Assembly: GCA_050331215.1 (NCBI GenBank)
Contig: JBHJHB010000117.1
Location: 64,001 to 98,989, forward strand
Length of the DNA stretch: 34,989 bases
Direction of reading: 5' to 3'
DNA from: Sandaracinaceae bacterium
GTDB taxonomy: Bacteria; Myxococcota_A; Polyangia; Polyangiales; Sandaracinaceae
The notes under the pieces are model-generated. The model did not search any database. It had not been told where the DNA came from and saw nothing but the letters and a program-made list of their open reading frames with translations. Both the position numbers and the translations under genes were made by a program. This document shows, one piece after another, positions 3,654-34,989 of the stretch (within the stretch, counting starts at the first letter, position 1; each line of letters begins with the position of its first letter).

Positions 3654-4499
3654 ATGAACGATGGATGGACGGCCCTCGACCCGACCCTCGGACGCCAGCT
3701 CACGGACGCGCGCTTGGCCGTCCACTGGGCCGCGCAGCTCGCGAGCGCGCCGGGGACGTCCCTCCTACCGCCCGAGGACGACTTCGGCCACACCACGCTC
3801 CGCTGGGACCCGACCGCCGAGGCGCTCCGCGGCGCCGCCCTCCCCGTCGGCCTCGCCGCGGCGCTGCGGCTCGCCCCCTTCACGCTGGCCCTGCTCGAGG
3901 GCGACGGCAGGATCGGTGACGAGCTGCCGCTCGCGGGCCGGACGCTGGACGACGGCCTCCGCTGGCTCACCGAGCGGCTCCGCGAGCACGCCCATGGCGA
4001 CCTGAGGGCCCCGATCGACCGCCCCCGCCACGACCTTCCGAGCCACCCCGTGGAGGCGGGGGCGGCCTTCGACACGCCCGAGCCGCGCCATCTCCGCGAG
4101 CTCGCGGCCTGGTTCGGCAACGCCCAGGCGGCCCTCGAGGAGACGCGCCTCGAGCAGACCGGCACCTCCCCCGTCCGCGTGTGGCCTCACCACTTCGACA
4201 TCGCGGCGCTCAGCGTGCTCGACCCCGAGCTCGACCCGGAGGTGGCGCGCTCCGTCGGCTTTGGCATGGCGCCCGGCGACGCCGGGGTGCCCGAGCCCTA
4301 CTTCTACGTGAACTGCTGGCCGCCGCCCCCGAGCCCGTCGACGCCCGCCCTCGGCCACGGCGAGACCTGGCACACCGAGGGCTGGGTCGGAGCCTCCCTG
4401 GCGAGCTCCGCGCTGAGGGCCGGCGCCGAGCAGGGCGCTCAGGTCCGGGGCTTCCTTCGGGACGCGATCCGCGCCTGCAAGGGAATGCTGCAGCGCTGA
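3654..4499 (+). CDS. Hypothetical protein (281 aa)
   Basis: The ATG at 3654 is preceded by GGAGG (3643-3647) at a 6-nt spacing. I recognise no conserved family. Confidence 0.6.
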   Translation: MNDGWTALDPTLGRQLTDARLAVHWAAQLASAPGTSLLPPEDDFGHTTLRWDPTAEALRGAALPVGLAAALRLAPFTLALLEGDGRIGDELPLAGRTLDDGLRWLTERLREHAHGDLRAPIDRPRHDLPSHPVEAGAAFDTPEPRHLRELAAWFGNAQAALEETRLEQTGTSPVRVWPHHFDIAALSVLDPELDPEVARSVGFGMAPGDAGVPEPYFYVNCWPPPPSPSTPALGHGETWHTEGWVGASLASSALRAGAEQGAQVRGFLRDAIRACKGMLQR

Positions 4500-6343: not shown

Positions 6344-6988
6344 ATGTTCTTCCTCAAGAAGAAGGTCACGATGCCCACGCGGGAGGACGCCCTCCCGGGC
6401 CGGCAGGCGAAGATGACGGTCCCGGCCCGCCACGCGGTCCTCGACGCGCCGCTCGACGCGCCCTTCGAGGGCCTCGAGGTAGCCGTGTTCGGCATGGGCT
6501 GCTTCTGGGGCGCGGAGCGGCTCTTCTGGCAGAGGCCGGGGGGCGTGAGCACCTCGGTCGGCTACGCCGGCGGCTTCACCGAGAACCCGACGTACGAGGA
6601 GGTGTGCTCGGGCCGCACCGGCCACACGGAGGTCGTCCGGGTGGTGTTCGACCCGGCCCGGGTCAGCTTCGACGAGCTGCTCCGCCTCTTCTGGGAGGGC
6701 CACGACCCGACCCAGGGGATGCGCCAGGGCAACGACGTCGGCACCCAGTACCGCAGCGCCATCCTCGTCGCGAACGACGAGCAGCGCGCGGCCGCCGAGG
6801 ACTCCCGCAAGGCCTACCAGGAGGCCCTCGAGGCGAAGGGCTACGGCGAGATCACGACGGTGATCGCGGACGCCGGGCCCTACTACTTCGCCGAGGCCTA
6901 CCACCAGCAGTACCTCCACAAGAACCCGGGCGGCTACTGCGGCATCGGGGGCACCGGGGTCAGCTGCCCGGTCGGGCTGACCGCCTGA
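6344..6988 (+). CDS. msrA: Peptide-methionine (S)-S-oxide reductase MsrA
   Basis: The protein has the catalytic GCFWG motif and is near-collinear with E. coli MsrA ([61 protein letters not shown]). A strong RBS, AAGGAGG, lies 8 nt upstream of ATG 6344. Confidence 0.93.
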
Positions 6989-7932: not shown

Positions 7933-10623
7933 TCAATACTCGACGCGTACGCCGCCCTGGACGAGGAAGGGGCGGTTCGGGCGCGCCCCGAACGGCCGGG
8001 TCGAGACGATCCGCTGCGTGAAGGTCAGGTTCTCGCCCCGGACGTAGACCCGCAGGTTCTCGAAGACCTGCAGGTACACCGTCGCGTCGAGCAGGAAATA
8101 GGGCTGCGTCTTCGTCTCGAGGCCGTCGCCGTCGACGTCGGTCCCATCGCCGATGTCCGACTCCGGGGTGCCCCTCCCCGCCTGCTCCCACATCGACGAC
8201 ACGAAGGACCCGCTGATCGAGGCCCCCGCCCTCTCCCCCTCCACGCCCGCCTGCAGCGTGAGCTGGTGCGGCGGGATGTAGGGGATGCGGTCGCCGACCC
8301 GGAAGTTGCCGAGGAGCGGGTCGCCCGTGTCCTCGGCCGTCCGCAGCTCGGTGAACACGTAGGTGTAGGCGAGGCGGAGGGGAAAGGCGACCGAGCCGAC
8401 CGTCGGCCGGCTGTCCGCGGCCACCTCGGCGCCGAGCACGTTGGCGGCGCCCGCGTTGGTCTGCTGGCCGATCGCATCGTCCGGGCACCCGGTCGCGAAG
8501 CTGCAGATCACGGTCAGGTTGGAGTAGTCGTTGAAGAAGAAGATCGCCGACGCGCGGGTCCGGCTCTCCTCGTGGCGGTAGCGCACGCCCGCCTCGTACA
8601 GCACGGACCGCTCGGGCTCCGCGTCCCCGCCCGTGCTGGGCGCGGCCGGGCTGAAGCCCCGCTGGACCCCGCCCACGAGGGAGAGCCCGTCGATCAGCTC
8701 CCAGGCCGCCGAGATCCCCGGCAGGACGCCGACCTGCTGGTCGTCCCCCTGCGCCCCGGCGAGCCGGTCGAGGAACCGCGTCCAGATCAGCTCGAGGCGG
8801 ATGCCCGGGGTCACGGTCAGGCCTCGCCAGCGGAGCGTCCAGGCGGTGTAGGCGCTCACCGCGAAGGCCTCCGCCGTGTTGTCCGCGGTCTGCCCGAAGG
8901 TGTTGTCCTGCTCCTGGAGCACGCGCTCGTCGTCGAGGAGGAACTCGGCCTGGGTGTGGTCCCGGGTCACCGTGTCCCAGTGGAAGCGCGCCCCGAAGCG
9001 CGCCTGGTGCTCGACCTCCCCCGTGCCGAGGCGGAGCGTGGCGTCGCTCTGGATCCCCTGCGACGCATACCGCCGGCCGTTGTTGCCGATCAGGAGAGGC
9101 CGGGTCGGGTCGGACGAGGTCCCCTCCACGACCCGAAAGAAGGGCTCGTTGGTCGCCGTGTCGGGCCGAAGGAGCACGTCCCGCAGGTCCGCCCCGGCCA
9201 CCCCGTTCACCTTGAACCAGTCCCGGTCGAAGTCGTGGCGATAGGCGGTGGTTCGCAGCTGGAAGCCCTCGCCGACCTCGAGGGTCCAGCGAAGCTGGGC
9301 CTGGGTCCGCCACCAGCGCATGCGGTCGAGGCCGCTCGTCCCGTACCGCCGGTAGGGGCCGTCCCGGAAGTCGCCTTCGGTGAGCCCGAGGTACGTCTCG
9401 TGCGAGCTCTCCAGGGTGAGCCCGAGCCGCGCCTCCAGGGTCTGGTAGACGTTGTCCCCGGTCGCGCCGCGCACGTCCCCGCGCAAGATGATCTCGCCTC
9501 GGTCGAAGCCCGTGCTGCCGTTGCCGCCCGCGGGGAAGTCGAGGTTCTTGAAGCCGTCGCTGTGGAGGTAGAGGCCCTCGACCAGGAAGCCGCCCCACTC
9601 GTTCGAGGTGCCGCCGTAGGCGTGCGCGCGGCCGGTCAGGTAGCTGCCGAGGGAGAGGTCCACGCCCGCGTGCGGCTCCCGCGGGATCGGGCGGCTCCGC
9701 CAGTCGATCGCCCCCGCCACCAGGTACGGCCCGTAGGGCAGCGCGGCCGGGCCCAGGTAGACGTCCATGCCGACCATGCGGCCCAGGAGCGGAAAGAAGT
9801 AGGCGCTCGGGGCGCTGTAGGGGGCAGGGCCGAAGAGCACCCCGTCCTCCATCAAGGTGATCTTGCGGCTCCGCTGCGGGCTCACCCCGCGCATGCCGAT
9901 GTTCGGGCGAAGCCCGAAGCCGTCCTCCATCTGGACGTAGACGCCCGGAACCTGGAGCACCTGGGCGTGGGGGTCGTCGTAGCGGAAGCGCGCCAGCGCC
10001 TCCTCGTCCAGGCGGTAGACGCTCGGACCGAGGGGGTCCGGCTCCTCCGTATCGAGGGCGGCGGCCGCTACGGTGACCGCGACCTCCATGTCCTCGTCCT
10101 CGTCGTCGAGGATCTCGGCGAGCTCCGCGTCCTCGCCGACGCCCTCGGCGTCGCGCGCGGCGCCCTCCGCGTCGCGGTCGGTGCCGTCGTCGGACGGGAG
10201 GTCGCCCAGCACGTCGTCGTCGGAGAGCTCCCCCAGCGCATCGTCACCCGGGCCCGCGGCCTCCCCCGGCGCGTCGTCGCCCGGCGCGTCGCCGTGGGGG
10301 GGCGCGCCCGCCACGTCGCTACCGGGCGCGTCGCCGGGGGGAGGCGCGCCCGGCGCGTCGTCGCCCGGCGCGTCATCGCCCGGGGGCTCGCCCGCCACGT
10401 CGTCGTTCGGGGGCTCGCCCGGCACGTCGTCCGGGCGGTCGGTCTCGGCGCCGCCCCTCGAGCCATCCTCCTCGGCGGGGCCGTCGGGACGGTCGCCCCC
10501 GGCGCGCTCGACGCCCGCGTCAGCGTCGGGCTGACCCAGCGCCCGGGGGGCGGGGAAGCACAGCGCCGGGACGCACAGCGCCGAGACGCACAGCGCCACG
10601 GCCACCGCCCAGCCCCGCAGCAC
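7933..10623 (-). CDS. TonB-dependent outer-membrane receptor with an unusual acidic low-complexity N-terminal extension
   Basis: The plug domain is recognisable (PGVYVQMEDGFGLRPNIGMRGVSPQRSRKITLMEDGVLFGPAPY) and is followed by a long beta-barrel ending ...GGVRVEY. I chose the GTG at 10623 as the start. It gives the signal peptide VLRGWAVAVALCVSALCVPALCFPAPRALG and avoids a 79-bp same-strand overlap with the upstream HTTM gene. The ORF track's ATG at 10725 is the alternative. About 150 aa of D/E/G/P-rich repeats (GDDAPG-like) lie between the signal peptide and the plug. Confidence 0.85.
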   Translation of the reverse strand: MLRGWAVAVALCVSALCVPALCFPAPRALGQPDADAGVERAGGDRPDGPAEEDGSRGGAETDRPDDVPGEPPNDDVAGEPPGDDAPGDDAPGAPPPGDAPGSDVAGAPPHGDAPGDDAPGEAAGPGDDALGELSDDDVLGDLPSDDGTDRDAEGAARDAEGVGEDAELAEILDDEDEDMEVAVTVAAAALDTEEPDPLGPSVYRLDEEALARFRYDDPHAQVLQVPGVYVQMEDGFGLRPNIGMRGVSPQRSRKITLMEDGVLFGPAPYSAPSAYFFPLLGRMVGMDVYLGPAALPYGPYLVAGAIDWRSRPIPREPHAGVDLSLGSYLTGRAHAYGGTSNEWGGFLVEGLYLHSDGFKNLDFPAGGNGSTGFDRGEIILRGDVRGATGDNVYQTLEARLGLTLESSHETYLGLTEGDFRDGPYRRYGTSGLDRMRWWRTQAQLRWTLEVGEGFQLRTTAYRHDFDRDWFKVNGVAGADLRDVLLRPDTATNEPFFRVVEGTSSDPTRPLLIGNNGRRYASQGIQSDATLRLGTGEVEHQARFGARFHWDTVTRDHTQAEFLLDDERVLQEQDNTFGQTADNTAEAFAVSAYTAWTLRWRGLTVTPGIRLELIWTRFLDRLAGAQGDDQQVGVLPGISAAWELIDGLSLVGGVQRGFSPAAPSTGGDAEPERSVLYEAGVRYRHEESRTRASAIFFFNDYSNLTVICSFATGCPDDAIGQQTNAGAANVLGAEVAADSRPTVGSVAFPLRLAYTYVFTELRTAEDTGDPLLGNFRVGDRIPYIPPHQLTLQAGVEGERAGASISGSFVSSMWEQAGRGTPESDIGDGTDVDGDGLETKTQPYFLLDATVYLQVFENLRVYVRGENLTFTQRIVSTRPFGARPNRPFLVQGGVRVEY
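10070..10460. repeat. In-frame imperfect tandem DNA repeats inside the TonB-receptor gene, encoding the acidic DDxPG(E/A)PP low-complexity linker
   Basis: Variants of ggcgcgtcgtcgcccggcgcgtc recur many times on the plus strand. On the minus strand the translation is ...PGDDAPGDDAPGAPPPGDAPGSDVAGAPPHGDAPGDDAPGEAAGPGDD.... A separate 15-bp x3 repeat (gcacagcgccgNgac, about 10557-10605) encodes part of the signal peptide. Confidence 0.7.
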
Positions 10624-10646
10624 CCGCGCCCCGATGCACCTCCGGC

Positions 10647-12050
10647 TCACCGTCGCCCGGTCCTCGCGTAGGCAGGGCGGCCCCCCGCGGGGAGCGGCGG
10701 CCCCTCCGGGGCGGCCGCGATCCACGTGGCCGGCAGCACGGATGGGTGCACCTCGGTCAGGTCCACGTCGGGGTCGATCAGCCGCGCCCGCGGGCGCCCG
10801 TTCAGCGATGCCCAGGCATCCACCCGCACCTCCACGCCCCGCTCGCCCCGGGCCTCGAGGTCCCCCGCGATCCGGTGGGCGAGCTGAACGATCAGGTCCG
10901 GCTGACCGCTCATCTCACGCTCCTGGTGGAGGGTGAGGTACTGGTCGGGGCGCAGGTAGCGCTCCGCCGGGTGGTCGGCGGTCCGCACCCGATAGACCAC
11001 GCTCCCGCTCTTCTGACGCACCATCACGCGCCAGCTGAAGCGCATCCCCTGCTCGTGCCAGAGGACGTCGCCGCCGTAGGCATGAGCGCGGAGCGGGATC
11101 GCGACTTGGAGGCCGGCCCAGAGAGCCAGCGCGAGCACCGCGGGCCGGCGCAGGCGGACGGCCTCGGCGGGCGCGCCGAGGCTCTTGTCCCGTGCCTGCC
11201 GCCAGCCGAAGCGCCGCGCGAGGCTCCGGGGCCAGGAGGGGTCGAAGAACACCAGCGCGAAGCCGCTCATCAACCACGGGAACATGCCGATGTTGAACAG
11301 CACGCCGGTCGCCGCGTGGAAGGCGAGCACGACGGCGAGGGCGAAGGGTCGGGACCTGCGCCAGAGGAGCCAGAGCGGGATGGTCAGGTCGTAGAGGAAG
11401 CCGGCCCAGCTCATCGTCAGGGCGAGCCACGCGTCGTCCATCCACGGGCCGACGACGGCCAGGTCCGACCGGGAGGCGAGCCAGATCCCGAGCGGCTGCC
11501 CGTGGAGCAGCCAGTCCGGCTGCAGCTTGGCCAGCGCGGCGAACACGTACACCACGCCGACCTGGAAGCGCAGCGCCCAGGTCATCCAGGCGGGCAGGGT
11601 CCGCACCCGGATCGACGGCCGGAGCCAGGCGTCCACGGAGCCCGCCCGGTGGAGCGGGAGGACCGCCAGCAGCGCCGCCAGCAGGCTCACCAGCACGTAG
11701 TGGTTGAGGTAGAAGGTGACGTCGAGCAGCTCGACGTACGCGAACACCGCGAGGAACACGACCGTCGCCACCCGGTACAGCGCGCCGACGGCGATGGCGA
11801 GGGCGCTCACCGCGAGCACGGCGAACAGCGCGTAGAGCACGGGCCCGGGCGGGGTGGCGACCCAGTCGAACCCGGGGTAGTGGAAGGCGAAGGTCGGCTC
11901 GAGGTAGAAGGTCTCGACCCAGCCCGACAGCACCGTCCGGGCCACCGCCGCGAGCAGCAGCAGCCCGAAGATCACGCGGAACGCCACGAGGCCCGCGACG
12001 TCCCACGGCTCCTCGAGGCGCCGCCGGATGGCGGCGATGGCGCGAGGCAC
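10647..12050 (-). CDS. HTTM-domain (vitamin K-dependent gamma-carboxylase-like) integral membrane protein
   Basis: The N-terminal half is polytopic and hydrophobic, with the HTTM-type pattern (FRVIFGLLLL..., the W-rich helices WLLHGQPLGIW and MFPWLMSGFALVFFDPSW). A soluble C-terminal domain follows. The start is GTG at 12050, 8 nt after the imelysin stop. Confidence 0.7.
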   Translation of the reverse strand: MPRAIAAIRRRLEEPWDVAGLVAFRVIFGLLLLAAVARTVLSGWVETFYLEPTFAFHYPGFDWVATPPGPVLYALFAVLAVSALAIAVGALYRVATVVFLAVFAYVELLDVTFYLNHYVLVSLLAALLAVLPLHRAGSVDAWLRPSIRVRTLPAWMTWALRFQVGVVYVFAALAKLQPDWLLHGQPLGIWLASRSDLAVVGPWMDDAWLALTMSWAGFLYDLTIPLWLLWRRSRPFALAVVLAFHAATGVLFNIGMFPWLMSGFALVFFDPSWPRSLARRFGWRQARDKSLGAPAEAVRLRRPAVLALALWAGLQVAIPLRAHAYGGDVLWHEQGMRFSWRVMVRQKSGSVVYRVRTADHPAERYLRPDQYLTLHQEREMSGQPDLIVQLAHRIAGDLEARGERGVEVRVDAWASLNGRPRARLIDPDVDLTEVHPSVLPATWIAAAPEGPPLPAGGRPAYARTGRR

Positions 12051-12058
12051 GGCTACGC

Positions 12059-13228
12059 TCAGTCGTTGTCGCCGACCGGCGGCGCCGGCGGTGAGAAGTC
12101 GAGAGCCGCCGCGAAGTCGGTCTCGAGGATCACGACCACGGCCTGGAGCGCCGCGAAGGCAGCCTCCACGGTCTCCGGGTCGTCCGTGAGGGCCGCCTCC
12201 AGGCTCGGCTCCACCGCCTCGACGGCAGCGGCCGCGTCGTCGAGGGCGCTCGTCAGGTCCGCCGCGGTCGAGCCGGCTCCGAGGTCGTCGAGCAGGTCAT
12301 CCAGCCCGACCGGCGCGCCGACGACCACCGCCCTCGCGCCGGCGAGGTTCGCCGCGACGTTGTCCCGGGAGTGCGCCGCGATCGACGACTCCAGGTCGTC
12401 CGGGCACGGCGGCGCCTCGCACCGCGGGCGGCTGGCCATCCGGAGCCCCGAGGGGTCCCCGATCTTCATGTCGAGCACCTCGGACTCGAGGTAGAAGAGC
12501 GACCCCGCGAGGTTGCTGACGGCGAGCTGGGCGGTCGGAAAGAGCAGGGAGCCCAGGCCGGCCTCCGCGAGCTCGGCGCGGAAGCCGTCCGCACCGGCCC
12601 AGCCGGCGAGGATCGCCTCCGCCCGCTCCCGGACAAGCACCGCCAGGGTGGCGGCGTAGGCCGCCCGCCGGGCGCGGACACCCTCCGGGCCGATGGCGTC
12701 CCAGGTACCCTCCGCGTTGATCGGGTCCTGGGGCGGACAAGCGTTCGCGGTGTCCTCGACGAACAGGAGCACCTCGAGGGCATCCAGCCCGCGCACGTTC
12801 ATGTCCTCGGAGCGGAGCTGCTCGACGCTCCGGAAGCTCTCGGCGACCGTCTCCTGGTCCATCCGGCAGCGGTTCGTCTCGGGCCAGCTGTGGATCTCCA
12901 GGCCCAGGTCCTCCCCGCCGGGGCCGCTCCCCGCCGCTGCGCCGGGCCCGATCAGCGCCGCTTCGACGCTCTGCCAGGCGACCATCGTCGCCCGCCAGGC
13001 CGACCGGGCCGCGGACCGGTTCGGCTCGGTCACCTCCCCGGCGTAGGCCGCGGTCGCGGTCTCGAGCTCGACGGCCCGGTCCCGAACGTCCTGCAGCTGC
13101 GGCAGAAGCACGGCATCGGTGAGGGCCAGGAGCACCTCGCGCTTGCGGGGGGCCAGGGCATCCTCGGGCTCGCTCGCGGTGCAGCCGACGGTGGCGGCGA
13201 GCGCGAGCACGGTCAGGGTTCGAAGCAC
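12059..13228 (-). CDS. Imelysin-like (peptidase M75 / IrpA-EfeM family) lipoprotein
   Basis: The start is GTG at 13228, preceded by GGAG at a 10-nt spacing. The lipobox signal is LTVLALAATVG|C. The N-terminal imelysin-like pattern is VLLPQLQDVRDRAVELETA...ARSAWRATMVAWQSVEAALIGPG (helix-pair repeat, W...W...E...GP), and the acidic C-terminal second repeat is also present. I see no canonical HxxE protease motif, so this is more IrpA-like than a peptidase. Confidence 0.7.
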   Translation of the reverse strand: MLRTLTVLALAATVGCTASEPEDALAPRKREVLLALTDAVLLPQLQDVRDRAVELETATAAYAGEVTEPNRSAARSAWRATMVAWQSVEAALIGPGAAAGSGPGGEDLGLEIHSWPETNRCRMDQETVAESFRSVEQLRSEDMNVRGLDALEVLLFVEDTANACPPQDPINAEGTWDAIGPEGVRARRAAYAATLAVLVRERAEAILAGWAGADGFRAELAEAGLGSLLFPTAQLAVSNLAGSLFYLESEVLDMKIGDPSGLRMASRPRCEAPPCPDDLESSIAAHSRDNVAANLAGARAVVVGAPVGLDDLLDDLGAGSTAADLTSALDDAAAAVEAVEPSLEAALTDDPETVEAAFAALQAVVVILETDFAAALDFSPPAPPVGDND

Positions 13229-13244
13229 GGTCGGTCGTCTCCGC

Positions 13245-14675
13245 TCACCAGCCGCCGAGGCCCTGGTCGTCCCCGAGGTTGGCGGCATCGAAGGAAAAGG
13301 CGTCGGCGAGGATGGCACGCGCCTCGAGAAGGTCCAGGCGGTGGGCGTCGACGGCCTCCGCGCCGTCGACCGGCAGCACCGGGGCGTCGCCGAGGAGCGT
13401 GTGGAGGCGGTCGAAGGAACCCGCCGAGACCGGCGAGCGTGGGTTGAACTGGAACCCGAGGGCGAAGCCCTTGGCCTCCGACCAGTGCTTCGCGTGGTCG
13501 AGGAACCCGTAGTCGTCGGTCCCGATGGCCGCCAGGTCCTGAAGCTGCTCGTTGATGTAGTGAACCACGGTGGCCGCGTAGGCGGCCTCCCAGGCGCCGC
13601 GCGCCCGGTCCCGCTGGGCCCGCAGCGCCTCGAGGTCGTCCGGGTCGATCGGCCCGCTGCGGTCCGCGATCAGGTCGCGGCCGCGGCGGAAGGCGTCCCA
13701 GGCGGTCTCCGCGAAGTCGGTCTCGGCCCCCGCCGCGCTGTCGAGGTCGCGCCGGGCTGCGTTGCGGGAGGCGCCGAAGTTGTACTCGCTCTTCAGGTCG
13801 ATGCGGCCGTCCGACGCGATGGAGTCGCGGTACCGGTCGGCGCCCGCGACGTCGGCCAGGTCGTAGTCGCCGTAGTCCCGCGCGGCCCCGAAGTAACCGA
13901 AGGCCTCGTCCCAGGCGTGCTCGAGGGCGGTGTAGCCGCCCGCGTCATCGACGTGGTCCGCGAGCAGCCCCTTGCCCTCGACGTCGTCGTCCAGGTAGTC
14001 GTCCGCGGCCTGGTGGAACGCGAGGGCGACCAGGAAGAACTTCTCCGTGAGCTGGGCCAGGTCGAGGCCGCTCTCCGTGACGGTCACGGGCAGGCTGCTG
14101 CCGTCGGGGCCCGTACGGGGGTCGCCCTGCGCCCGCTTGAGCGCGTTGGCCTCCACCGTCTCGAACATCGCCGTCACGAGCCCCGTGGGCGACGTGATGC
14201 TGCCGCCGTGCTGCGCGAGGGCGGGGTCCGACCAGCCCCGGAAGTCGGTCGACCAGTCGACGTAGTCGGTCGCCGGGTCGTTGCCCGCGAGCTTCTGGTC
14301 GAGGGACGCGCCGGTCGACACCTCGCCGTACGTCTCCTGGAGGAGCGGCGGATCGGTCGCGAGGAGCGGCGCGAGGCCCGCCGCCGCGTCCCCGTCGAAC
14401 CGGAAGTAGAAGTCCAGGCGAGCGACGACGTCCCCCTCCTCCGCGGGCTGGACGTCGCCGCGGTCGATCTGCTCGGTCAACCCGTCGAGGCTCCGCCGCA
14501 GCTCGCCGATCAGGAGATGGCGCATCGTCTGGCCGCTGTAGGCGACGCTGGAGTCGGCGCCGGCGAAGCGGCTGCCGAACGCATAGGTAGCCGGGAGGCT
14601 GCCACCCGCTTCGCCGCCGCAGGCGGACGTCAGGCACAGCGCGGGGCAGAGCAGGAGCAAGGAACGAAGCGACAT
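13245..14675 (-). CDS. Secreted lipoprotein, DUF4856-like (imelysin-associated family); function unknown
   Basis: The start is ATG at 14675, preceded by GGAG at a 7-nt spacing. The lipobox signal is MSLRSLLLLCPALCLTSA|CGG. It is the first gene of the operon and lies 16 nt upstream of the imelysin gene. The family name comes from my memory of recurring imelysin-HTTM-DUF4856 neighbourhoods and is unverified here. Confidence 0.6.
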   Translation of the reverse strand: MSLRSLLLLCPALCLTSACGGEAGGSLPATYAFGSRFAGADSSVAYSGQTMRHLLIGELRRSLDGLTEQIDRGDVQPAEEGDVVARLDFYFRFDGDAAAGLAPLLATDPPLLQETYGEVSTGASLDQKLAGNDPATDYVDWSTDFRGWSDPALAQHGGSITSPTGLVTAMFETVEANALKRAQGDPRTGPDGSSLPVTVTESGLDLAQLTEKFFLVALAFHQAADDYLDDDVEGKGLLADHVDDAGGYTALEHAWDEAFGYFGAARDYGDYDLADVAGADRYRDSIASDGRIDLKSEYNFGASRNAARRDLDSAAGAETDFAETAWDAFRRGRDLIADRSGPIDPDDLEALRAQRDRARGAWEAAYAATVVHYINEQLQDLAAIGTDDYGFLDHAKHWSEAKGFALGFQFNPRSPVSAGSFDRLHTLLGDAPVLPVDGAEAVDAHRLDLLEARAILADAFSFDAANLGDDQGLGGW

Positions 14676-14711
14676 GCGAGGTCTCCGAAGGGTCGAGGTG
14701 TCGTGGAAGAG

Positions 14712-14745
14712 ACGGACGATAATGAGTTTGATTCTCAGTTGCGCC
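14712..14745. promoter_or_regulatory. Candidate Fur box / iron-responsive operator in the divergent promoter region
   Basis: GATAATGAGTTTGATTCTC (14718-14736) matches the 19-bp Fur consensus GATAATGATAATCATTATC at 14 of 19 positions, including the perfect first 8. It sits in a locally AT-rich patch of an otherwise about 70% GC region, 40-60 bp upstream of the first operon gene (start 14675, minus strand). It also contains the inverted repeat TGAG-TTTGATT-CTCA. Confidence 0.45.
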
Positions 14746-14798
14746 CAGGGGTAGCGGGCGGCGGAGACGCCGTCAAGCTCGCACGTTGGCCTCCTCAC

Positions 14799-15692
14799 GT
14801 GGCGCCGGTAGGCTCCAGAGACGTGCAGTCGCTCCTGAAGCTCCTGGACCTGGTGCGCCGCGACCTCGGCGCGCAGGACGTCCGAGCCGAGATCGGCGGC
14901 CGACCGCCGCCCCCCGACGCGCGACGCATCTGGGCGGAGCTGGATCCCGACCTCCGGGTCGTGGTGACCTTCGCGGAGCCCCCTGGCGTACCGGAGGAGC
15001 TCCGAGCCCGCCTCGTGGCTCTGCTCGTCCCGTTCTCCGACCTTCCGCGGCGTGTGGTGTTCCCGGCCCTCGAGGTGCCGGAGAACAAGGAGCGGGAGCT
15101 CGACGAGGAGCTCTCGACCCTCGCCGAGCGGACCGGCGCCCTGGCCGCCGTGGTGATCGACGAGCGCTCACCCGTGCTCTGGGGGACGAGCGTGCCGCGG
15201 GTGGAGGGCTGGGACGTCGCGCGGATGGAGGAGGCCGTGCGGCTCGCCGCGGACGTCGCCTCCTACGGGCTCGATCCCACCGAGGCCCTCCTCGAGGACG
15301 CCCCCGCCCCGGCGGGCATCGACGTCACCCGGCAGCGTCGCTGGGCCCACCGCTTCGCAGGGCTGAGGCCTCTCCTTCCCGAGGGCGGCCGCGACGGATG
15401 GCGTAACGCCCTGACCCTCGCCCGTGCCGTCCATGCCGTGCGCGACCGTTGCCGGGGTGGACGCGCGCCCGAGCGGCTGGCCCTGGCCGAGAGCGACCTC
15501 GGGGTGTTCGCGCGCGGCCTCGCGCATATCTACGCGGCGGTGCTCGTGTTCGAAGGCCCCTACTCCGAGCTCCACGCCGAGGGCCCCCTCGTGCGGGTTC
15601 TGCCGACCCTGGAGAGCCTGGTCCTGGCCCTGCCGCCAGTGGAGCCCCCACCCCGGGGGGCCAAGGTCATCCCGCTGCGGTCCGGCCCGTGA
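14799..15692 (+). CDS. Hypothetical protein (about 298 aa)
   Basis: This is the in-frame tail of the artefactual 857-aa ORF 13119..15692. The first plausible starts are the GTGs at 14799 and 14823, which I cannot distinguish. The stop TGA at 15690-15692 overlaps the next gene's GTG (GTGA). I recognise no domain. The segment AAVVIDERSPVLWG is faintly roadblock-like. Confidence 0.5.
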   Translation: MAPVGSRDVQSLLKLLDLVRRDLGAQDVRAEIGGRPPPPDARRIWAELDPDLRVVVTFAEPPGVPEELRARLVALLVPFSDLPRRVVFPALEVPENKERELDEELSTLAERTGALAAVVIDERSPVLWGTSVPRVEGWDVARMEEAVRLAADVASYGLDPTEALLEDAPAPAGIDVTRQRRWAHRFAGLRPLLPEGGRDGWRNALTLARAVHAVRDRCRGGRAPERLALAESDLGVFARGLAHIYAAVLVFEGPYSELHAEGPLVRVLPTLESLVLALPPVEPPPRGAKVIPLRSGP

Positions 15693-16249
15693 GCCCGGAC
15701 GTCCGCGACCGGCTGACCGTGGTCCATACGGACCTCGATGGGCGGACCTATCGGCACGGCACGTCGGCGGGTCTCGAGGTCGGCGGCCTGGGCAAGCCGC
15801 CGCCGACCCTCCGGGGCCGCCTCGCGGGCCGGCTCCTGCGCGGGCTGGCCTGGCCGGCCGCGGTGGTCCTCATGGCGCTTGCGCTCCGCGTGCAGCTCGC
15901 CGGGATCCTGCCCCTGGCCCTCTGCCTCGTGGCCGCCCTGCCGGGCGCCTTCGTGGGGCTCCTCGCGCTCGGCGACCGGGTCGAGCGCCCCCCCCACCGC
16001 TACCGGCTCCGGCCCTTCGTCCTCCGCTCCACGGCGCAAGACCCTCGGGCCCGCTCCGCGGACCTCGGCGAGGAGACCCGGGCCCCCCTCCCCGCTCGGG
16101 CCGCGCTGACGACGCTCCGCACGGGGGACGACTGGGGCGTCGGGCTCGCCCACCGCGCCGCGCTGGTCGAGGGCCTGCGCGGGGAGATCGCGCAGCGGCT
16201 CGTCACCGAGGTCGAGACGCAGCGCGCGCGGCTCTCCGCGCACGGCTGA
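15689..16249 (+). CDS. Hypothetical small membrane protein (about 186 aa, 2 predicted TM helices)
   Basis: The GTG at 15689 overlaps the upstream stop (GTGA), implying translational coupling. The hydrophobic segments are AAVVLMALALRVQLAGILPLALCLVAALPGAFVGLLAL. Confidence 0.5.
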   Translation: MSPDVRDRLTVVHTDLDGRTYRHGTSAGLEVGGLGKPPPTLRGRLAGRLLRGLAWPAAVVLMALALRVQLAGILPLALCLVAALPGAFVGLLALGDRVERPPHRYRLRPFVLRSTAQDPRARSADLGEETRAPLPARAALTTLRTGDDWGVGLAHRAALVEGLRGEIAQRLVTEVETQRARLSAHG

Positions 16250-16335
16250 CCGACGAGGGCCGCCCCACCGCGTCGAGGCCCGAAGCGTGCAGGGAGCGCA
16301 CGTTCTCAGGGCGAGCGGGCTGCTAGAGTCCGCGC

Positions 16336-16887
16336 ATGCTCCGGACGCTCTCCCTCCTCCCGTTGCTGGCGGTGATCGGCTGCGGCCCGCCCTGGATCGC
16401 TCACCGGCTGTCCGGGCCTCCGAGCGCGCTGGCCGGGACACAGGCTCTCCTCGTCAGCTTCGACCTGGGCCAAGTCGTGATCGACGGGTACGACTACCCG
16501 GCCTTCCTCGCCCTCGCGGAGCCGGAGGAGGTGGACAACGTCGAGCGTGCGTTGGCCGAGCTCCAGCCGACCCTGTACCAGGAGTTCGCGGCACGCGTGC
16601 CCGTTCCCGCGCAGCGGGTCGAGCCCACGCCGGCAGGCCCCGGCGAGGTCCGGATGGTCGCGGTCCTCGAGGAGGTCATCCGGGGGCCCCGCGGCCCCTG
16701 CTGCGGCGCGACGAGGGTGACCTGGCGCTTCGAGTTCTTCGTGGACGGGACCCTGACGGACTCGATCAGCGTCCCCACCGAGGTCGGGTCGAGCATCACC
16801 CGGCCGAGCGTCGAGCAGCGAGCCCAGGCGGCGAGCCGGCGCGCCGGGGCGGTGGCGGCGTCCTTCGTCCAGAAGAACCTGGGCTGA
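16336..16887 (+). CDS. Hypothetical lipoprotein (183 aa)
   Basis: The signal peptide is MLRTLSLLPLLAVIG|CG with a lipobox. I recognise no conserved domain. Confidence 0.55.
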   Translation: MLRTLSLLPLLAVIGCGPPWIAHRLSGPPSALAGTQALLVSFDLGQVVIDGYDYPAFLALAEPEEVDNVERALAELQPTLYQEFAARVPVPAQRVEPTPAGPGEVRMVAVLEEVIRGPRGPCCGATRVTWRFEFFVDGTLTDSISVPTEVGSSITRPSVEQRAQAASRRAGAVAASFVQKNLG

Positions 16888-16975: not shown

Positions 16976-18310
16976 GTGCGGCCGCCGACGCCCCCCTCAT
17001 ACTCCGGCCCCGTGACCGCGCCCGCGCTCCCCCGCCGGAACCTCCCGCTCTACCTGGGCGCGCGCGTGGCGGCAGCCACGGGCATCCAGATCCAGAGCGT
17101 CGCGATCGGCCTCCAGGTCTACGAGCGCACGGGGAGCACGCTCGACCTCGGCAACGTCGGCCTCGCCCAGTTCGTGCCCCTCGCCCTCTTGAGCGCCTAC
17201 GCCGGGAGCTTCGCCGACCGCCACGACCGCCGCACGATCCTGACCGCCTGCCGGGTGCTCTACGCCGTCGGCAGCCTCGCCCTCGCGTCGCTCTGCTTCG
17301 CCCCGGGATGGGGGGTGGGCCCCATCTACGTCGTCCTGGTGGTGCTCGGCGCGACGCGGGCCTTCTCGTGGCCGGCGAGCTCGGCGCTCCTTCCCAACGT
17401 GGTCTCTCTGGCCGAGCTCCCGCGAGCGATCGCCCTCAGCTCGATCGCGTTCCAGGTCGCCACGGTGAGCGGCCCGGCCCTGAGCGGCATCCTCTACGCG
17501 GCCGCCGGGCCCGAGGGCGCGTACCTCGCGTCGGCGGTCCTCGAGGGGACGAGCGCGGTGCTCGTGTTCCTCCTGCGACCCGCCCCCCGGCGTGGCCCCG
17601 TCCGGCCCACCGAGCCCTGGCCTCGGCAGTTCCTCTCCGGGCTGCGCTACGTGTTCCGGGAGAAGATCGTCCTCGGCGCGCTCAGCCTCGACCTGTTCGC
17701 GGTGCTCCTGGGCGGGGCGGTGGCGTTGATGCCCGTCTACGCCACGGACATCCTGGGCGTCGGGGCGACCGGGTTCGGCTGGCTCCGGGCCGCGCCAGCC
17801 GTCGGCGCCGTGGTCGTCGCGATCTTCCTGGCGTCGCGGCCGATCCGACGCCGCGCGGGGCTCTACCTGTTCCTCGGGGTCGGGCTGTTCGGCCTCGCCA
17901 CGATCGTGTTCGGGCTCTCCCGGAGCTTCGGCCTGTCGCTGATCGCCCTCGTGATCCTGGGCGGCGCGGACATGGTCAGCGTGGTGATCCGCCGCAGCCT
18001 GATCCAGCTCTGGACGCCCGACGCGATGAGGGGTCGGGTGAGCGCCGTCGACATGGTCTTCGTCGGGGCGAGCAACGAGCTCGGCGAGATGGAGTCGGGC
18101 TACAGCGCGCGGCTCCTGGAGGTAGGCGTCGGCCTCGAGAAGGAGAAGGCGGTCGTCGCCGCCGTGGTCCTCGGCGGGGTCGGCACCCTGATGGTGACGG
18201 GGCTGTGGGCCTGGGCATTCCCGAGCCTCCGGCGCACCGACCGCCTCCAGGGGCGCGACGGGGCGCGCCCGACGCCGGTGCCGCCCGACGGCGCGCCAGG
18301 CGGCCGCTAG
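16976..18310 (+). CDS. MFS transporter (EntS/ENTS-like 12-TM efflux family)
   Basis: The protein has 12 hydrophobic segments and a conserved MFS loop motif (GSFADRHDRR; also LASRPIRRR). The exact start is uncertain; it is either the ATG at 16976 or an internal GTG. Confidence 0.75.
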   Translation: MRPPTPPSYSGPVTAPALPRRNLPLYLGARVAAATGIQIQSVAIGLQVYERTGSTLDLGNVGLAQFVPLALLSAYAGSFADRHDRRTILTACRVLYAVGSLALASLCFAPGWGVGPIYVVLVVLGATRAFSWPASSALLPNVVSLAELPRAIALSSIAFQVATVSGPALSGILYAAAGPEGAYLASAVLEGTSAVLVFLLRPAPRRGPVRPTEPWPRQFLSGLRYVFREKIVLGALSLDLFAVLLGGAVALMPVYATDILGVGATGFGWLRAAPAVGAVVVAIFLASRPIRRRAGLYLFLGVGLFGLATIVFGLSRSFGLSLIALVILGGADMVSVVIRRSLIQLWTPDAMRGRVSAVDMVFVGASNELGEMESGYSARLLEVGVGLEKEKAVVAAVVLGGVGTLMVTGLWAWAFPSLRRTDRLQGRDGARPTPVPPDGAPGGR

Positions 18311-28356: not shown

Positions 28357-29994
28357 ATGGCTCGTCTCCTCCTCAAGAACGCACGTATCGTAGATGGCAC
28401 GAACGCACCCGCGTTCGACGGCGACGTCCTGATCGAGGACGAGCGCATCGCCGAGGTCGGCGACGCACAGCTCACCCCGGACGAGGTGGTCGACGTCGGC
28501 GGGGCGGTCGTTGCGCCGGGGTTCATCGACGTGCACTCCCACGGCGACTTCGGGCTGCTGTCGGATGGCGAGACGCGCCCCAAGACCCTGCAGGGCGTGA
28601 CGACGGAGGTCGTCTGCAACTGTGGGCTCGGCCTCTTCCCGGCGAACGGCGCCGTCGAGGCCTACTACGAGATGCTCGGCCCGATGATCTTCGGCGAAGA
28701 GGGGGGCCGCTGCCTGCCCCACCTCCAGGCCTTCCGGGGCGCGGCGCACAAGCGCGGGATCAGCGTCAACGCGGCCTGCCTGGTGCCCCACGGCAACGTC
28801 CGCGTCGCCGCGATGGGCGTCGAGGAGCGGGAGCCGAGCGAGGCGGAGCTCGGCCACATGAAGGAGCTCGTCGAGGAGGGGATGGACCAGGGGGCCTTCG
28901 GCCTCTCGAGCGGCCTCGTCTACCCGCCGGGGTCCTACGCGGCGACGGACGAGCTGATCGAGCTGGCCCGGGTCGTCCAGCCGTTCGGCGGCATGTACGC
29001 GACCCACATGCGGGACGAGGGGACGCAGGTGGTCGAGGCCCTGGAGGAAGCGATCTTCATCGGGCAGGAGGCGGGCGTCCCGGTCCAGATCTCCCACCAC
29101 AAGGTCGCCGGCCGCTTCAATTGGGGCAAGACGAAGCGGACCCTGGCCCGGATCGAGGAGGCCCAGGCGAACGGCCAGGACGTCACCAGCGACGTCTACC
29201 CGTACACGGCCGGCTCGACCGTGTTGAGCACGATCTTCATCCCTCAGTGGGCGTTCGAAGGGGGGCTGCCCCAGCTGATGGTCCGCCTGCAGGACCCCGA
29301 AGCCCGCGAGCGGATCGTCGAGACCGGCAAGGAGCGCACGCTCCAGATGGCCAAGCTGCCGGGCGTCTGGGACCGGCTCGTGCCGAAGCGGCTGCTGCTG
29401 CCGCTGATCATGCGCGAGATCGCCAAGGTGATCGTGCTGAGCAGCGTCCCCGTCCAGTCCCACCTCGAAGGCATGAGCCTCTGGGAGATCGCGCGGCAGC
29501 GCCGCCAGCCGCTCTACGACGCGCTGATGGACCTGCTCGTCGAAGAGAACACCGCCGTCGCCGCGATCGCCTTCGTCATGGCCGAAGAGGACGTCCAGCG
29601 CGTGATGACCCATCCGACCACCATGTTCGGGACGGACGGCTTCGATCAGCGGCACGGCAAGCCGCATCCACGCACGTTCGGCACCTACCCCAGGGTTCTG
29701 CAGCACTACACCCGCGAAGAGGGCGTCCTCGGCCTCGAGACCGCGATCCACAAGATGACGGGGATGGTGGCGCGCAAGCTCGGCCTGAGGGACCGGGGCG
29801 TGCTCGAGCCAGGCGCTCACGCCGACGTCGTCGTCTTCGATCCTGCCACGGTCGAGGACCACGCCACCTACGCCGAGCCACGGCGCCACCCGACTGGCTT
29901 CAAGCACCTCTTCGTCAACGGCCGCTGGACCGTCCGTCACGGACGCCATACCGGGGCGCGGGCCGGCCGGGTGCTCAGCTCGCGCCCGCGTTGA
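28357..29994 (+). CDS. Amidohydrolase-family N-acyl-D-amino-acid deacylase (D-aminoacylase)-like enzyme
   Basis: The protein has the N-terminal LKNARIVDG...APGFIDVHSHGD metal-binding HxH motif and middle and C-terminal amidohydrolase segments (YATHMRDEG; GTDG). Overall it is collinear with the D-aminoacylase architecture. Confidence 0.8.
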   Translation: MARLLLKNARIVDGTNAPAFDGDVLIEDERIAEVGDAQLTPDEVVDVGGAVVAPGFIDVHSHGDFGLLSDGETRPKTLQGVTTEVVCNCGLGLFPANGAVEAYYEMLGPMIFGEEGGRCLPHLQAFRGAAHKRGISVNAACLVPHGNVRVAAMGVEEREPSEAELGHMKELVEEGMDQGAFGLSSGLVYPPGSYAATDELIELARVVQPFGGMYATHMRDEGTQVVEALEEAIFIGQEAGVPVQISHHKVAGRFNWGKTKRTLARIEEAQANGQDVTSDVYPYTAGSTVLSTIFIPQWAFEGGLPQLMVRLQDPEARERIVETGKERTLQMAKLPGVWDRLVPKRLLLPLIMREIAKVIVLSSVPVQSHLEGMSLWEIARQRRQPLYDALMDLLVEENTAVAAIAFVMAEEDVQRVMTHPTTMFGTDGFDQRHGKPHPRTFGTYPRVLQHYTREEGVLGLETAIHKMTGMVARKLGLRDRGVLEPGAHADVVVFDPATVEDHATYAEPRRHPTGFKHLFVNGRWTVRHGRHTGARAGRVLSSRPR

Positions 29995-32162: not shown

Positions 32163-34526
32163 TCAGAGGAGCTCCTCGCAGCCCGGGAGGATGTAGTCGA
32201 TCCGCTCGAGCTGGCGACAGAGCGCAGCGTCGATCCGTGCCCCCTCCCCCGGCACCACGGGTGCCTCCTCCTCCGTACCGGCCTCGAGCCACGCGCCGCG
32301 GTCCGCCGCCCCGAGGTACTGCCCGATCAGCCCGCGGAGGTAGCGAGTCGCGACCGGGTGGACCGAGCCGTCGTCGATCTGGTTCTGCTCGCCGGGATCG
32401 GCCTGGAGGTTGAACAGCGACCACGTGAGGTTGCCGCGAACGACGAGCTTGAAGCCGGCGCCCGTGACCACTCGCCGGTCGTCGAGCTTGTCGCTGAAGG
32501 CGACCGCGGGCCCGGGCCGCGGCACCCCACGGGCCATCGACAGCAGGCTGCGACCCTCGAAGGCCTCGGGCGCGGCCACGTTGAGGGCCTCGAGGACCGT
32601 CGGGGCGATGTCGAGGGTGCTGACGGTCGGGGCGAGCCGACCCGTCGGGATGACGCCCGGCCACCTCAGCAGCAACGGCACGTGGAGCAGCTCCTGGTAG
32701 ACGCTGTGGCCATGCCCCCAGCTCCCGTGCTCGTGAAACTCTTCCCCGTGGTCGCTCGTGATCACGAAGAGCACCTGCTCCCGGAGGCCGAGCTCGGCGA
32801 GACGCTCGAGGAAGGGCCCGAAGTGCCGGTCGTGGTACGTGATCTCCCCGTCGTGGAGGGCCTCGAGGCGCTCCCGGTCCCGCGGCGTGAAGTAGCCCTC
32901 CCCCTCCGTCTTGGCCTCACCGAGCTGGTGGCCCGTCCGGCGCGGCCGCACCCGGCCCTCGTAGGGCGCGGCGTCGTACAACGCGAGCAGGTCCTCCGGC
33001 GGGTCGTAGGGGACGTGGGGGTCGATCGTCTGGATGTACGCGAAGAACCGCTCCTCCCGATGGGCCTCGATCCACCGCAAGGCCTCACCGAACACACGCT
33101 CCGCTTCTGTCCTCCGCTCCTCGCGAATGTAGTTCGTGTAGTGGTCCCACCCCTGGTCGAAGCCGAAGCGGTCCGACACGTAGCCGTTGGCGATGAAGCT
33201 GCCGGTCGCGAACCCCTCGCCGTCGAGCACCTCGCTCAGCATCAGCACCCGGTCGGGGAGGCGGCTGGTGTCCGATTTGGTCCGGTGGCTCATCGGGCTC
33301 AGGGACGCGAGGACCGAGGCGACCGCCGGCTTCGTCCAGTTCTCCGGCGACTGCGCGCGCTCGAACAGCGCCCCCTCTGCCGCGAAGGCGTCGAGGGCCG
33401 GCGTCTGAACGCGGCTGTCCGGGTTGTAGGCCTGGAGCTTCGACGCCCGGAGCGTGTCGATCAGGAGCAGGATGACGCTCGCCGCCGGCGCCTCGGGTGG
33501 CGGCGGCTCCTCCGCGCGTGGCACGAGCACCGTCGGCGCGGCGAAGGCGCCGCGCCCGGCGCCCTCCACCTCGAGCTCGAGGCGTACGACCTGACCGGCG
33601 AGCTCATCGAGCGGCAGCAGCCGGGGTGACCAGCTCTCCGTCAGCGGCTCGCGGAGGAGCTCCCGCTCCTGCCCTCCCTCCGGCCGAACCCGGATGGCGG
33701 CGCTCAGGCTCGCCCCGCGCACCTTGCCGAGCGACAGCGCGAGGTCCGCGTCTGGCGGGACCTCGAGGTACGAGCGAAGCCGGGTTCCCCCACCGAGGAC
33801 GAGGGCTCGCCGCGCCTCGCCGCCGACCTCCACCTCCCGCACGAGGTCCCGGGCGAGCGGCGCGGGAGGCGGGTCGGCGGGGGGGGCACCGCGGAACGCC
33901 CAGAGCGCGTCCACCTCGCAGGCCACCCCGTCCTGCGCCACGTTCGGGGCGCGCACCCGGACCACGTTCTCGCCGGCGTGGGTCAGCTCGGCCTCGACGG
34001 GGACGTCGACGTCGGTCGGCGCGCCTGCCGCCAGGGTGACCTCCCCGGCCGTCCGGCCGTTCACGTAGACGACCAGACGTCTCGCCTGGACCGGCCGCAG
34101 CCGGAACCGCAGCGTGAGCGGCCCGGCTGCGTCGAGGGTGAGGAACACCCGCGCGTCGGGCCCCATCCGCGTGAAGTCGCGCCCGTCGCTCGCGACGTCG
34201 CGGCCCCAGCCGCTGTGCCAGCGACCCATCGTCGCGTGGTGCCGGGCGGGCGTGCCGAAGTCGATGTACAGGCCACCCCGATCGCCGTCGGCGAGGTGGG
34301 CATGGGCCATCAGGTCGAGGTGAGTGCGGCTCGACGCGAGGGCCTCGCGGACCGGGTCGACCGGCGGCTCGGCGGGCGCCTCCGACCGCTCGACGGCCTC
34401 GGCCGGCTCCGGCTCCGGGGGCGCTGCCGAGGGGGGCTCTGCCGGCTCGCCGCCGCAGGCGGTCAGGCACGCCACGGCGAGGAAGGAGAGGACCGCGGTC
34501 CGGGTCTCGTGCCCGCGTCGCTTCAT
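32163..34526 (-). CDS. Sulfatase-like hydrolase/transferase (alkaline-phosphatase superfamily) lipoprotein with an about 340-aa N-terminal extension
   Basis: The signal and lipobox are MKRRGHETRTAVLSFLAVACLTA|CGG (ATG 34526; the alternative ATG is 34562). The sulfatase-fold core spans ILLLIDTLRASKL...TSDHGEEFHEHGSWGHGHS. I could not find a canonical C/S-x-P-x-R formylglycine motif. Confidence 0.75.
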   Translation of the reverse strand: MKRRGHETRTAVLSFLAVACLTACGGEPAEPPSAAPPEPEPAEAVERSEAPAEPPVDPVREALASSRTHLDLMAHAHLADGDRGGLYIDFGTPARHHATMGRWHSGWGRDVASDGRDFTRMGPDARVFLTLDAAGPLTLRFRLRPVQARRLVVYVNGRTAGEVTLAAGAPTDVDVPVEAELTHAGENVVRVRAPNVAQDGVACEVDALWAFRGAPPADPPPAPLARDLVREVEVGGEARRALVLGGGTRLRSYLEVPPDADLALSLGKVRGASLSAAIRVRPEGGQERELLREPLTESWSPRLLPLDELAGQVVRLELEVEGAGRGAFAAPTVLVPRAEEPPPPEAPAASVILLLIDTLRASKLQAYNPDSRVQTPALDAFAAEGALFERAQSPENWTKPAVASVLASLSPMSHRTKSDTSRLPDRVLMLSEVLDGEGFATGSFIANGYVSDRFGFDQGWDHYTNYIREERRTEAERVFGEALRWIEAHREERFFAYIQTIDPHVPYDPPEDLLALYDAAPYEGRVRPRRTGHQLGEAKTEGEGYFTPRDRERLEALHDGEITYHDRHFGPFLERLAELGLREQVLFVITSDHGEEFHEHGSWGHGHSVYQELLHVPLLLRWPGVIPTGRLAPTVSTLDIAPTVLEALNVAAPEAFEGRSLLSMARGVPRPGPAVAFSDKLDDRRVVTGAGFKLVVRGNLTWSLFNLQADPGEQNQIDDGSVHPVATRYLRGLIGQYLGAADRGAWLEAGTEEEAPVVPGEGARIDAALCRQLERIDYILPGCEELL

Positions 34527-34710
34527 GGCCGCGAAGATGCCGGATGGGATGCGCGTGCGCATCCCGCGAGCCGAAGGATGCGCGCAGACGAGGGATGCTT
34601 CGAGGGCGGCGGATGCGCGCGGGCGGGGTGGCCGCGGGCTCCGTCGCGAGAGTCGAGCCTCAGGAACCGAACGAGCGCCGATGTTCGTACGAGCCGATGT
34701 TCGGGGATTG

Positions 34711-34810
34711 TAAACCGTACTCGATGTTCAGGAACCGTAAACCGTACTAACCGGAAACCGTACTGGTAACCGTACTAACCGGAAACCGGTACTAACCGGA
34801 AACCGTACTG
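34711..34810. repeat. Direct-repeat array: about 7 copies of AACCG(G)TACT, with higher-order unit (T)AACCGGAAACCGTACT, preceded by three GATGTTC copies
   Basis: Read directly from the sequence: ...taaaccgtactcgatgttcaggaaccgtaaaccgtactaaccggaaaccgtactggtaaccgtactaaccggaaaccggtactaaccggaaaccgtactgg. The array is AT-richer than its surroundings and lies 150-280 bp upstream of the sulfatase-like gene start (minus strand). Confidence 0.8.
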
Positions 34811-34989
34811 GGTGAGGTCTTATCGGCCCACACTTATCAGCGGTGAACCCTCGGCGGCCTCTCGTCGGCGGCGGTCCCGCCGCCGTCCGCCGCCACCTCG
34901 CCGATTCCGGGCCCCTGAACCACACCTGAAGCACAGCCTCGGCGTCCGGCATGGCCCGTGCCCCGCGCCGAAGGGTGGGTCACCCCAAC

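Follow-up and report, generated by a model that had tools for sequence, protein, structure and literature searches.

Which regulator, if any, reads the AT-rich patch that separates two divergent transcription units in an uncultured Sandaracinaceae bacterium, and which of the two units does it serve? On the minus strand the patch precedes an operon encoding a DUF4856 lipoprotein, an imelysin-like protein, an HTTM membrane protein and a TonB-dependent outer-membrane receptor, and on the plus strand it precedes two genes without family assignment. Our analysis of the window, by which we mean the whole stretch of 34,989 nucleotides that was analysed (73% G+C), suggests that the patch contains an operator for an iron-responsive repressor of the Fur family, in all likelihood Fur, acting on the DUF4856-imelysin-HTTM-TonB-receptor operon (14675 to 7933, minus strand), a reading to which we assign a probability of about 0.8. 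The predicted operator is conventional, an ordinary example of iron-responsive repression, newly recorded here for an uncultured member of the Sandaracinaceae.

The first-pass annotation had described a Fur-box-like, AT-rich element within 14712-14745 that matches the classical consensus at 14 of 19 positions, and this description was borne out by the 19-mer GATAATGAGTTTGATTCTC at 14718-14736. This 19-mer agrees with the classical E. coli 19-bp Fur consensus, GATAATGATAATCATTATC, at 14/19 positions on the plus strand, and its reverse complement, GAGAATCAAACTCATTATC, agrees at 15/19 on the minus strand. Among the ~35,000 positions of the 35-kb window, both strands considered, the next non-overlapping match to the consensus reaches 11/19, and base composition predicts 3e-4 matches of at least 15/19 in the window. 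The patch had also been called the only AT-rich one of the divergent region; stretches with at least 12 A/T in 19 nt occur at just six places in the window, and 14712-14745 is indeed the sole one in its intergenic region. When the 34-nt patch was shuffled, 15/19 was reached once in 20,000 trials and its clade-PWM score (see below) in 0/20,000, and shuffles of the 123-bp spacer reached neither level in 5,000 trials. Because shuffles of both patch and spacer fail to reproduce the scores, it is the order of the bases that is Fur-like, beyond AT content alone. The core is a dyad of the 7-1-7 type (TGAnAAT-n-ATTnTCA) in which the near-invariant clade positions T4, G5, A6, T14, T16, C17 and A18 are kept; its left half-site, TGAGTTT, is degenerate (4/7 of the arm), and an additional hexamer, GATAAT, flanks the core, with TTATC at 14722-14718 on the operon strand forming the end of this hexamer. 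A repeat search of the spacer returned just two 9-nt repeats, at chance level.

Table 1. Features of the divergent region, of the operon and of the boxes in three relatives (L081, L082 and L086)
Feature	Position	Strand	Sequence or basis
Predicted -35	14771..14776	-	TTGACG; comparative conservation
Predicted weak -10	14748..14753	-	TACCCC; placed by spacing only, 17 nt after the -35
Box core in predicted operon-strand layout	14737-14723	-	TGAGAATCAAACTCA; preceded by -35 (14776-14771), 17 nt, -10 (14753-14748) and a 10-nt gap
Putative Fur-type operator	14718..14737	.	GATAATGAGTTTGATTCTCA
7-1-7 core	14723-14737		TGAGTTT-G-ATTCTCA
Clade-PWM 19-mer	14720-14738		
Gene 1, DUF4856 lipoprotein, 476 aa	13245..14675	-	Pfam PF16148, E 9e-12; lipobox signal peptide
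Gene 2, imelysin-like (Peptidase_M75)	12059..13318	-	Pfam PF09375, E 2.6e-27
Gene 3, HTTM / vitamin-K-dependent-carboxylase-like membrane protein	10647..12050	-	PF05090, E 1.5e-79; PF22777, E 9e-41
Gene 4, TonB-dependent outer-membrane receptor	7933..10650	-	Pfam PF00593, E 8e-32
plus1, conserved hypothetical protein, 289 aa	14823..15692	+	No Pfam/NCBIfam family; Sandaracinaceae/Polyangiaceae
plus2, 186 aa, long hydrophobic stretch	15689-16249	+	No Pfam/NCBIfam family; GTGA overlap with plus1
L081 box			GATTCTGATTCTCAGTGTC; 14/19
L082 box			GATTCTGATTCTCACTATC; 15/19
L086 box			GAGTATGATTCTCAGTTTC; 14/19, PWM 15.4 bits

The operon was delimited by codon-position G+C together with Pfam. Its ATG at 14675 is backed by the lipoprotein signal peptide MSLRSLLLLCPALCLTSAC and by a GGAG 8 nt upstream; codon-position G+C indicates that the imelysin gene may start at 13210 instead of the position in Table 1, and the start of the receptor gene overlaps the stop of the HTTM gene. 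The receptor has weak NCBIfam matches to siderophore/FecA receptor models, and the DUF4856 protein has 1700 homologues, abundant in Myxococcota, with the closest non-identical one at 58%. Scanning one genome per species for DUF4856 homologues yielded 80 loci, across which the gene order DUF4856-imelysin-(HTTM)-TBDR is kept, with imelysin at 74/80 loci, the TonB-dependent receptor (TBDR) at 61/80 and HTTM at 34/80. The box is associated with these iron-acquisition genes, that is, with imelysin, the TonB-dependent receptor, DUF4856 and HTTM in the operon. No peroxidase gene was detected in the operon with Pfam, and no fur or Fur-family gene lies within the 35-kb window, the rest of which consists of housekeeping genes. 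We found no literature on DUF4856, nor on the combination of imelysin, HTTM and a TonB-dependent receptor. HTTM is a regular member of this putatively iron-regulated outer-membrane operon in Myxococcota and also belongs to the cluster of Riemerella (PMC5609570).

We then turn to the conservation of the box. Within 320 nt upstream of the DUF4856 gene, the E. coli consensus is matched at 14/19 or better in 40 of 62 Myxococcota loci, versus 4 of 2093 control 320-nt windows of the same loci; this footprint constitutes an independent test, whereas the enrichment of the PWM in orthologues is partly circular, the matrix having been trained on those sites. A Gibbs sampler, run de novo with several seeds on 75 upstream regions, returned the motif TATTGAAAATGATTTTCAA, which reads as the dyad TGAnAAT-s-ATTnTCA, and selected 14720-14738 as the site in the window. 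For the clade PWM we used 56 orthologous sites in Myxococcota and left out the window's own, and in these sites G5 and A6 are kept in 56/56 and 54/56 cases, respectively. A scan with a Fur PWM of the same clade against background, as the first-pass annotation had proposed, came out in favour of the operator: the window site scores 15.4 bits, the best of ~70,000 positions (mean -43.9, sd 10.6), and site clusters as strong were found outside these promoters only four times in 687 kb of related DNA, about one per 170 kb; of the four, one precedes a TonB gene and another the gene of a TonB-dependent receptor. Within the family, 15.4 bits is at the weak end, the training sites extending down to 13.9 bits around a median of 24.0. 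The second-best clade-PWM match in the window, TGTTGAGCACGATCTTCAT at 29222-29240 (9.3 bits), is located inside an amidohydrolase gene (28357-29994) and is probably due to chance.

The centre of the box lies 54 nt from the ATG in the window and at a median of 59 nt in orthologues (interquartile range 35-92), distances that are approximate in that some automatic orthologue starts lie too far upstream and overlap the box. Among the orthologues, the TGA-N9-TCA dyad core is kept in either orientation and at varying distance from the start codon. The conservation extends to several gammaproteobacterial orthologues, among them those of Salinimonas (L049), Parashewanella (L077) and an Alteromonadaceae MAG (L052), where Fur-type boxes such as AATGATATTGATTCTCAAT are found 58-85 nt before the true DUF4856 start, DUF4856 proteins of this type having a longer N-terminus; three loci fall below the 13-bit cut-off, namely Marinobacter (L070, 10.7 bits), L076 (2.7 bits) and L079 (8.2 bits). 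The comparative evidence thus strongly supports the earlier proposal of a Fur-type operator that would be placed to repress the minus-strand operon.

A generic scan of 14400-15100 for sigma-70 promoters and terminators returned none at threshold, and the promoter proposed for the operon (Table 1) therefore rests on comparative conservation. In the window as in L081, L082 and L086, TGAGAATC is preceded at 33-36 nt upstream by an invariant TTGAC. At 12 of 57 distant orthologous loci, where about one is expected, an exact copy of TTGAC is present 10-50 nt upstream of the box; in several of these loci the box overlaps the -10. At the -10 spacing, the relatives carry TAGCCC (L081) and TAGAGG (L082). 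With so poor a -10 hexamer (TACCCC) and an empty generic scan, the geometry of this promoter is a prediction. A promoter of the form TTGACG-N17-TACCCC implies a transcription start near 14740-14742, so that the box would span roughly +3 to +24 relative to that start, which we infer to be a repressor position from which Fur typically blocks initiation. We propose a model whereby, when iron is sufficient, Fe(II)-Fur dimers would bind the 7-1-7 repeat together with the adjoining GATAAT hexamer, and the bound Fur, 10 nt downstream of the promoter, would prevent either the formation of the open complex or escape from the promoter; under iron scarcity, Fur would dissociate and the outer-membrane iron-acquisition operon would be transcribed. 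In this model we infer which protein binds, where transcription starts and in which direction the operon is regulated.

The first-pass annotation had further suggested that the element could regulate the plus-strand genes, then given as 14799..16249, across a divergent spacer of 123 bp that runs from a minus-strand start at 14675. The minus-strand start stands. For plus1, a start at 14799 was rejected in favour of a GTG at 14823, where the gene probably begins, in view of an identical 289-aa NCBI model (P0121), homologues of 287-298 aa and a conserved TAGGCT-N8-GTG; with this start, the spacer is ~147 bp rather than 123 bp. The -10-like TAGGCT (14809-14814), which is also found in L081, L082, L086 and L089, is located exactly 8 nt before the GTG, and this spacing suggests that the plus1 mRNA may be leaderless with a GTG start. 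The 114 homologues of plus1, most of them from Sandaracinaceae and Polyangiaceae, occur in four different genomic contexts.

The alternative that survives best, although we consider it unlikely, is that the box is bidirectional and represses both the DUF4856 operon and the plus-strand genes (14823-16249), perhaps together with the MFS_3 exporter gene at 17012-18310, in one iron-responsive divergon. The box lies in the shared spacer, and the divergence of plus1 from the DUF4856 operon recurs in L081, L082/L083 and L086, with a box in each spacer; the plus side ends in a transporter of the MFS_3 family, which includes the enterobactin exporter EntS, and at two other loci (L088 and L089) plus1 is divergent from an ECF sigma/FecR pair. 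However, the box is situated some 85-105 nt upstream of the likely start site of plus1, outside its core promoter, and no box was found near plus1 in L084/L085, L087, L088 or L089 (at most 12/19, PWM below 8.3). Of these, L084, L087, L088 and L089 represent four loci with three distinct gene contexts in which plus1 is away from the DUF4856 operon, following an unrelated gene in L084/L085 and L087. Conversely, plus1 or plus2 accompanies the DUF4856 operon at 0 of the 80 genome loci, the operon keeps its box without plus1, and neither plus2 nor the gene at 16336 is conserved even in a syntenic relative. A shared divergon operator would lie over both core promoters and be kept with both genes, a pattern that was not observed for this box. 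Since plus1 homologues have a box only beside the DUF4856 operon, the predicted operator goes with the iron operon rather than with plus1, which is probably outside the regulated unit, and control of the plus-strand genes received no support as a conserved feature.

The plus-strand side of the window differs from that of relatives. In these, the gene next to plus1 encodes a GNAT (Acetyltransf_3), and the MFS_3 transporter gene comes after it. A comparison of the window (15689-16887) with L082 (4926-5447) shows the GNAT gene replaced by two unrelated genes, plus2 and 16336-16887, neither of which has a Pfam/NCBIfam family; that the 16336 gene might be the GNAT acetyltransferase of the relatives was ruled out. 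The MFS_3 gene of the window is orthologous to that of the relatives, with 60% identity. In several contexts plus1 adjoins envelope- or iron-signalling operons, and where it is divergent from an ECF sigma/FecR-type anti-sigma pair (L088 2216-2830, L089 2248-2871) the spacer is without a Fur-like box.

Alignment of four spacers, those of the window and of three Sandaracinaceae-type relatives, revealed only two invariant blocks, cTTGAC and TGAGAATCA.A.TCA, with the remainder diverged. In this group the site resembles a run of GAGAAT/CAGAAT/CAAACT hexamers whose units have been gained or lost, three being present in the window and four in L082. A more elaborate version of the divergon can be drawn from this appearance, in which the operator would be an expandable direct GAGAAT/CAGAAT/CAAACT array and would serve as one iron switch for both the DUF4856-imelysin-HTTM-TBDR importer and the plus1...MFS_3 side with its EntS-like exporter; we regard this version as improbable, but if it were true, it would give the conserved hypothetical plus1 family a likely part in the metabolism of iron or siderophores. 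L082 has a second Fur-like operator at 6916-6945 (the same site in L083 is 3952-3981), TTGACA-TGCAAC-TGAGAATCAATATCA (16.6 bits). It lies within a good sigma-70-like promoter directly behind the MFS_3 gene and is followed, after ~110 nt, by an 81-aa ORF without family; it could control a Fur-regulated small protein or small RNA, and the window was found to lack an equivalent.

A different question is whether the protein that reads the box is Fur. Another Fur paralogue (Zur-, Mur- or PerR-like), or an unrelated reader of TGA-N9-TCA of the Rrf2/RirA type, might bind it in response to a signal other than iron via Fur. Fur-family boxes resemble one another, such that the protein is not nameable from sequence alone; in addition, myxobacteria encode several Fur homologues, and the skeleton of the rhizobial RirA box is also TGA-N9-TCA. 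To our knowledge, however, RirA is confined to Alphaproteobacteria, and several observations make any such regulator a poor prospect. We compared the box with Bacillus-type half-sites, the Fur, PerR and Zur consensus sequences being reportedly those of Baichoo and Helmann in 2002 and of Fuangthong and Helmann in 2003. The clade consensus matches the Fur half-sites at 12/14 positions, those of PerR at 10/14 and those of Zur at 8/14, and the window core follows the same order (Fur 10/14, PerR 8/14, Zur 6/14); the invariant TGA...TCA with an AT-rich interior thus suits Fur better than its paralogues, and neither a Zur (TCGTAAT) nor a PerR (TTATAAT) half-site was found in the operator in place of TGATAAT. 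Moreover, several gammaproteobacterial orthologues have classical Fur boxes and not gamma-type Zur boxes, and the same motif precedes the TonB and receptor genes mentioned above. A homologous cluster in Riemerella anatipestifer, RAYM_09779-09794, is listed among the genes induced by iron restriction and affected by deletion of fur (PMC5609570), and in Myxococcus xanthus both a Fur (MXAN_3702) and Fur boxes have been predicted (PMC9548883).

It is very improbable that the patch is no operator at all and instead part of a promoter, such as an AT-rich -10 or a UP-like sequence, or AT-rich by chance: the patch does contain -10-like hexamers on either strand (GATAAT on the plus, CATTAT on the minus) and no clear sigma-70 promoter was otherwise found, yet the TGA-N9-TCA dyad is kept in either orientation at variable distance from the start codon, shuffles of the patch fail to reproduce its score, a separate conserved -35 lies upstream of it, and an Rfam scan of 14500-15000 at E<=1 returned no RNA family in the region.

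Taken as a Fur operator, the box would provide a sound regulatory annotation for the genome of an uncultured Sandaracinaceae. In Myxococcota and Gammaproteobacteria, the DUF4856-imelysin-HTTM-TonB-receptor operon may be annotated as belonging, in a conserved manner, to the regulon of iron starvation, for which experiments in Bacteroidota lend support (PMC5609570). Because a Fur-type box precedes the operon consistently in different phyla, its HTTM and DUF4856 proteins are candidates for an uncharacterised step of outer-membrane iron acquisition, and the clade PWM could serve to map Fur regulons in high-G+C myxobacterial MAGs. Unrelated to this operon, a dense array of AACCGGAAACCGTACT-type units is present in non-coding DNA at 34695-34815, upstream of a sulfatase-family gene (32163-34562, minus strand); TRF reported a period of 16 with ~5 copies, in addition to a 27-nt duplication, and the units could be repeated binding sites of a regulator or satellite-like DNA.

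Compared with known systems, the same four protein families are found in one cluster in R. anatipestifer, RAYM_09779-09794, whose products are given as a hypothetical protein, an imelysin lipoprotein, a 'vitamin K-dependent gamma-carboxylase' and a TonB-dependent receptor (PMC5609570). Riemerella differs in belonging to Bacteroidota and in its Fur-box consensus, which is of the ATTTAGAAT type, and the passages of PMC5609570 that we consulted give no Fur box for the cluster itself. Imelysin operons under Fur regulation have been described in P. aeruginosa (PA4370-4373) and V. cholerae (VC1264-1266) (PMC3143127), and the window resembles them in having imelysin in an iron-acquisition operon for which repression by Fur is here predicted from sequence; these operons combine imelysin with an EfeB-type peroxidase, whereas in the window it is combined with DUF4856, HTTM and a TonB-dependent receptor. 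As to the operator, it departs from the classical Fur box in its degenerate left half-site and in the hexamer-run appearance of the site in the Sandaracinaceae-type group, and its setting differs in that the DNA is rich in G+C, as is the predicted -10. In other respects it resembles the classical Fur box (E. coli GATAATGATAATCATTATC; Bacillus-type 7-1-7 TGATAATnATTATCA): it agrees with the 19-mer at 15/19, keeps the TGA-N9-TCA dyad and its AT-rich interior, and lies beside or over the predicted promoter of an iron-uptake operon with a TonB-dependent receptor, and the extra flanking hexamer GATAAT likens it to extended Fur sites.
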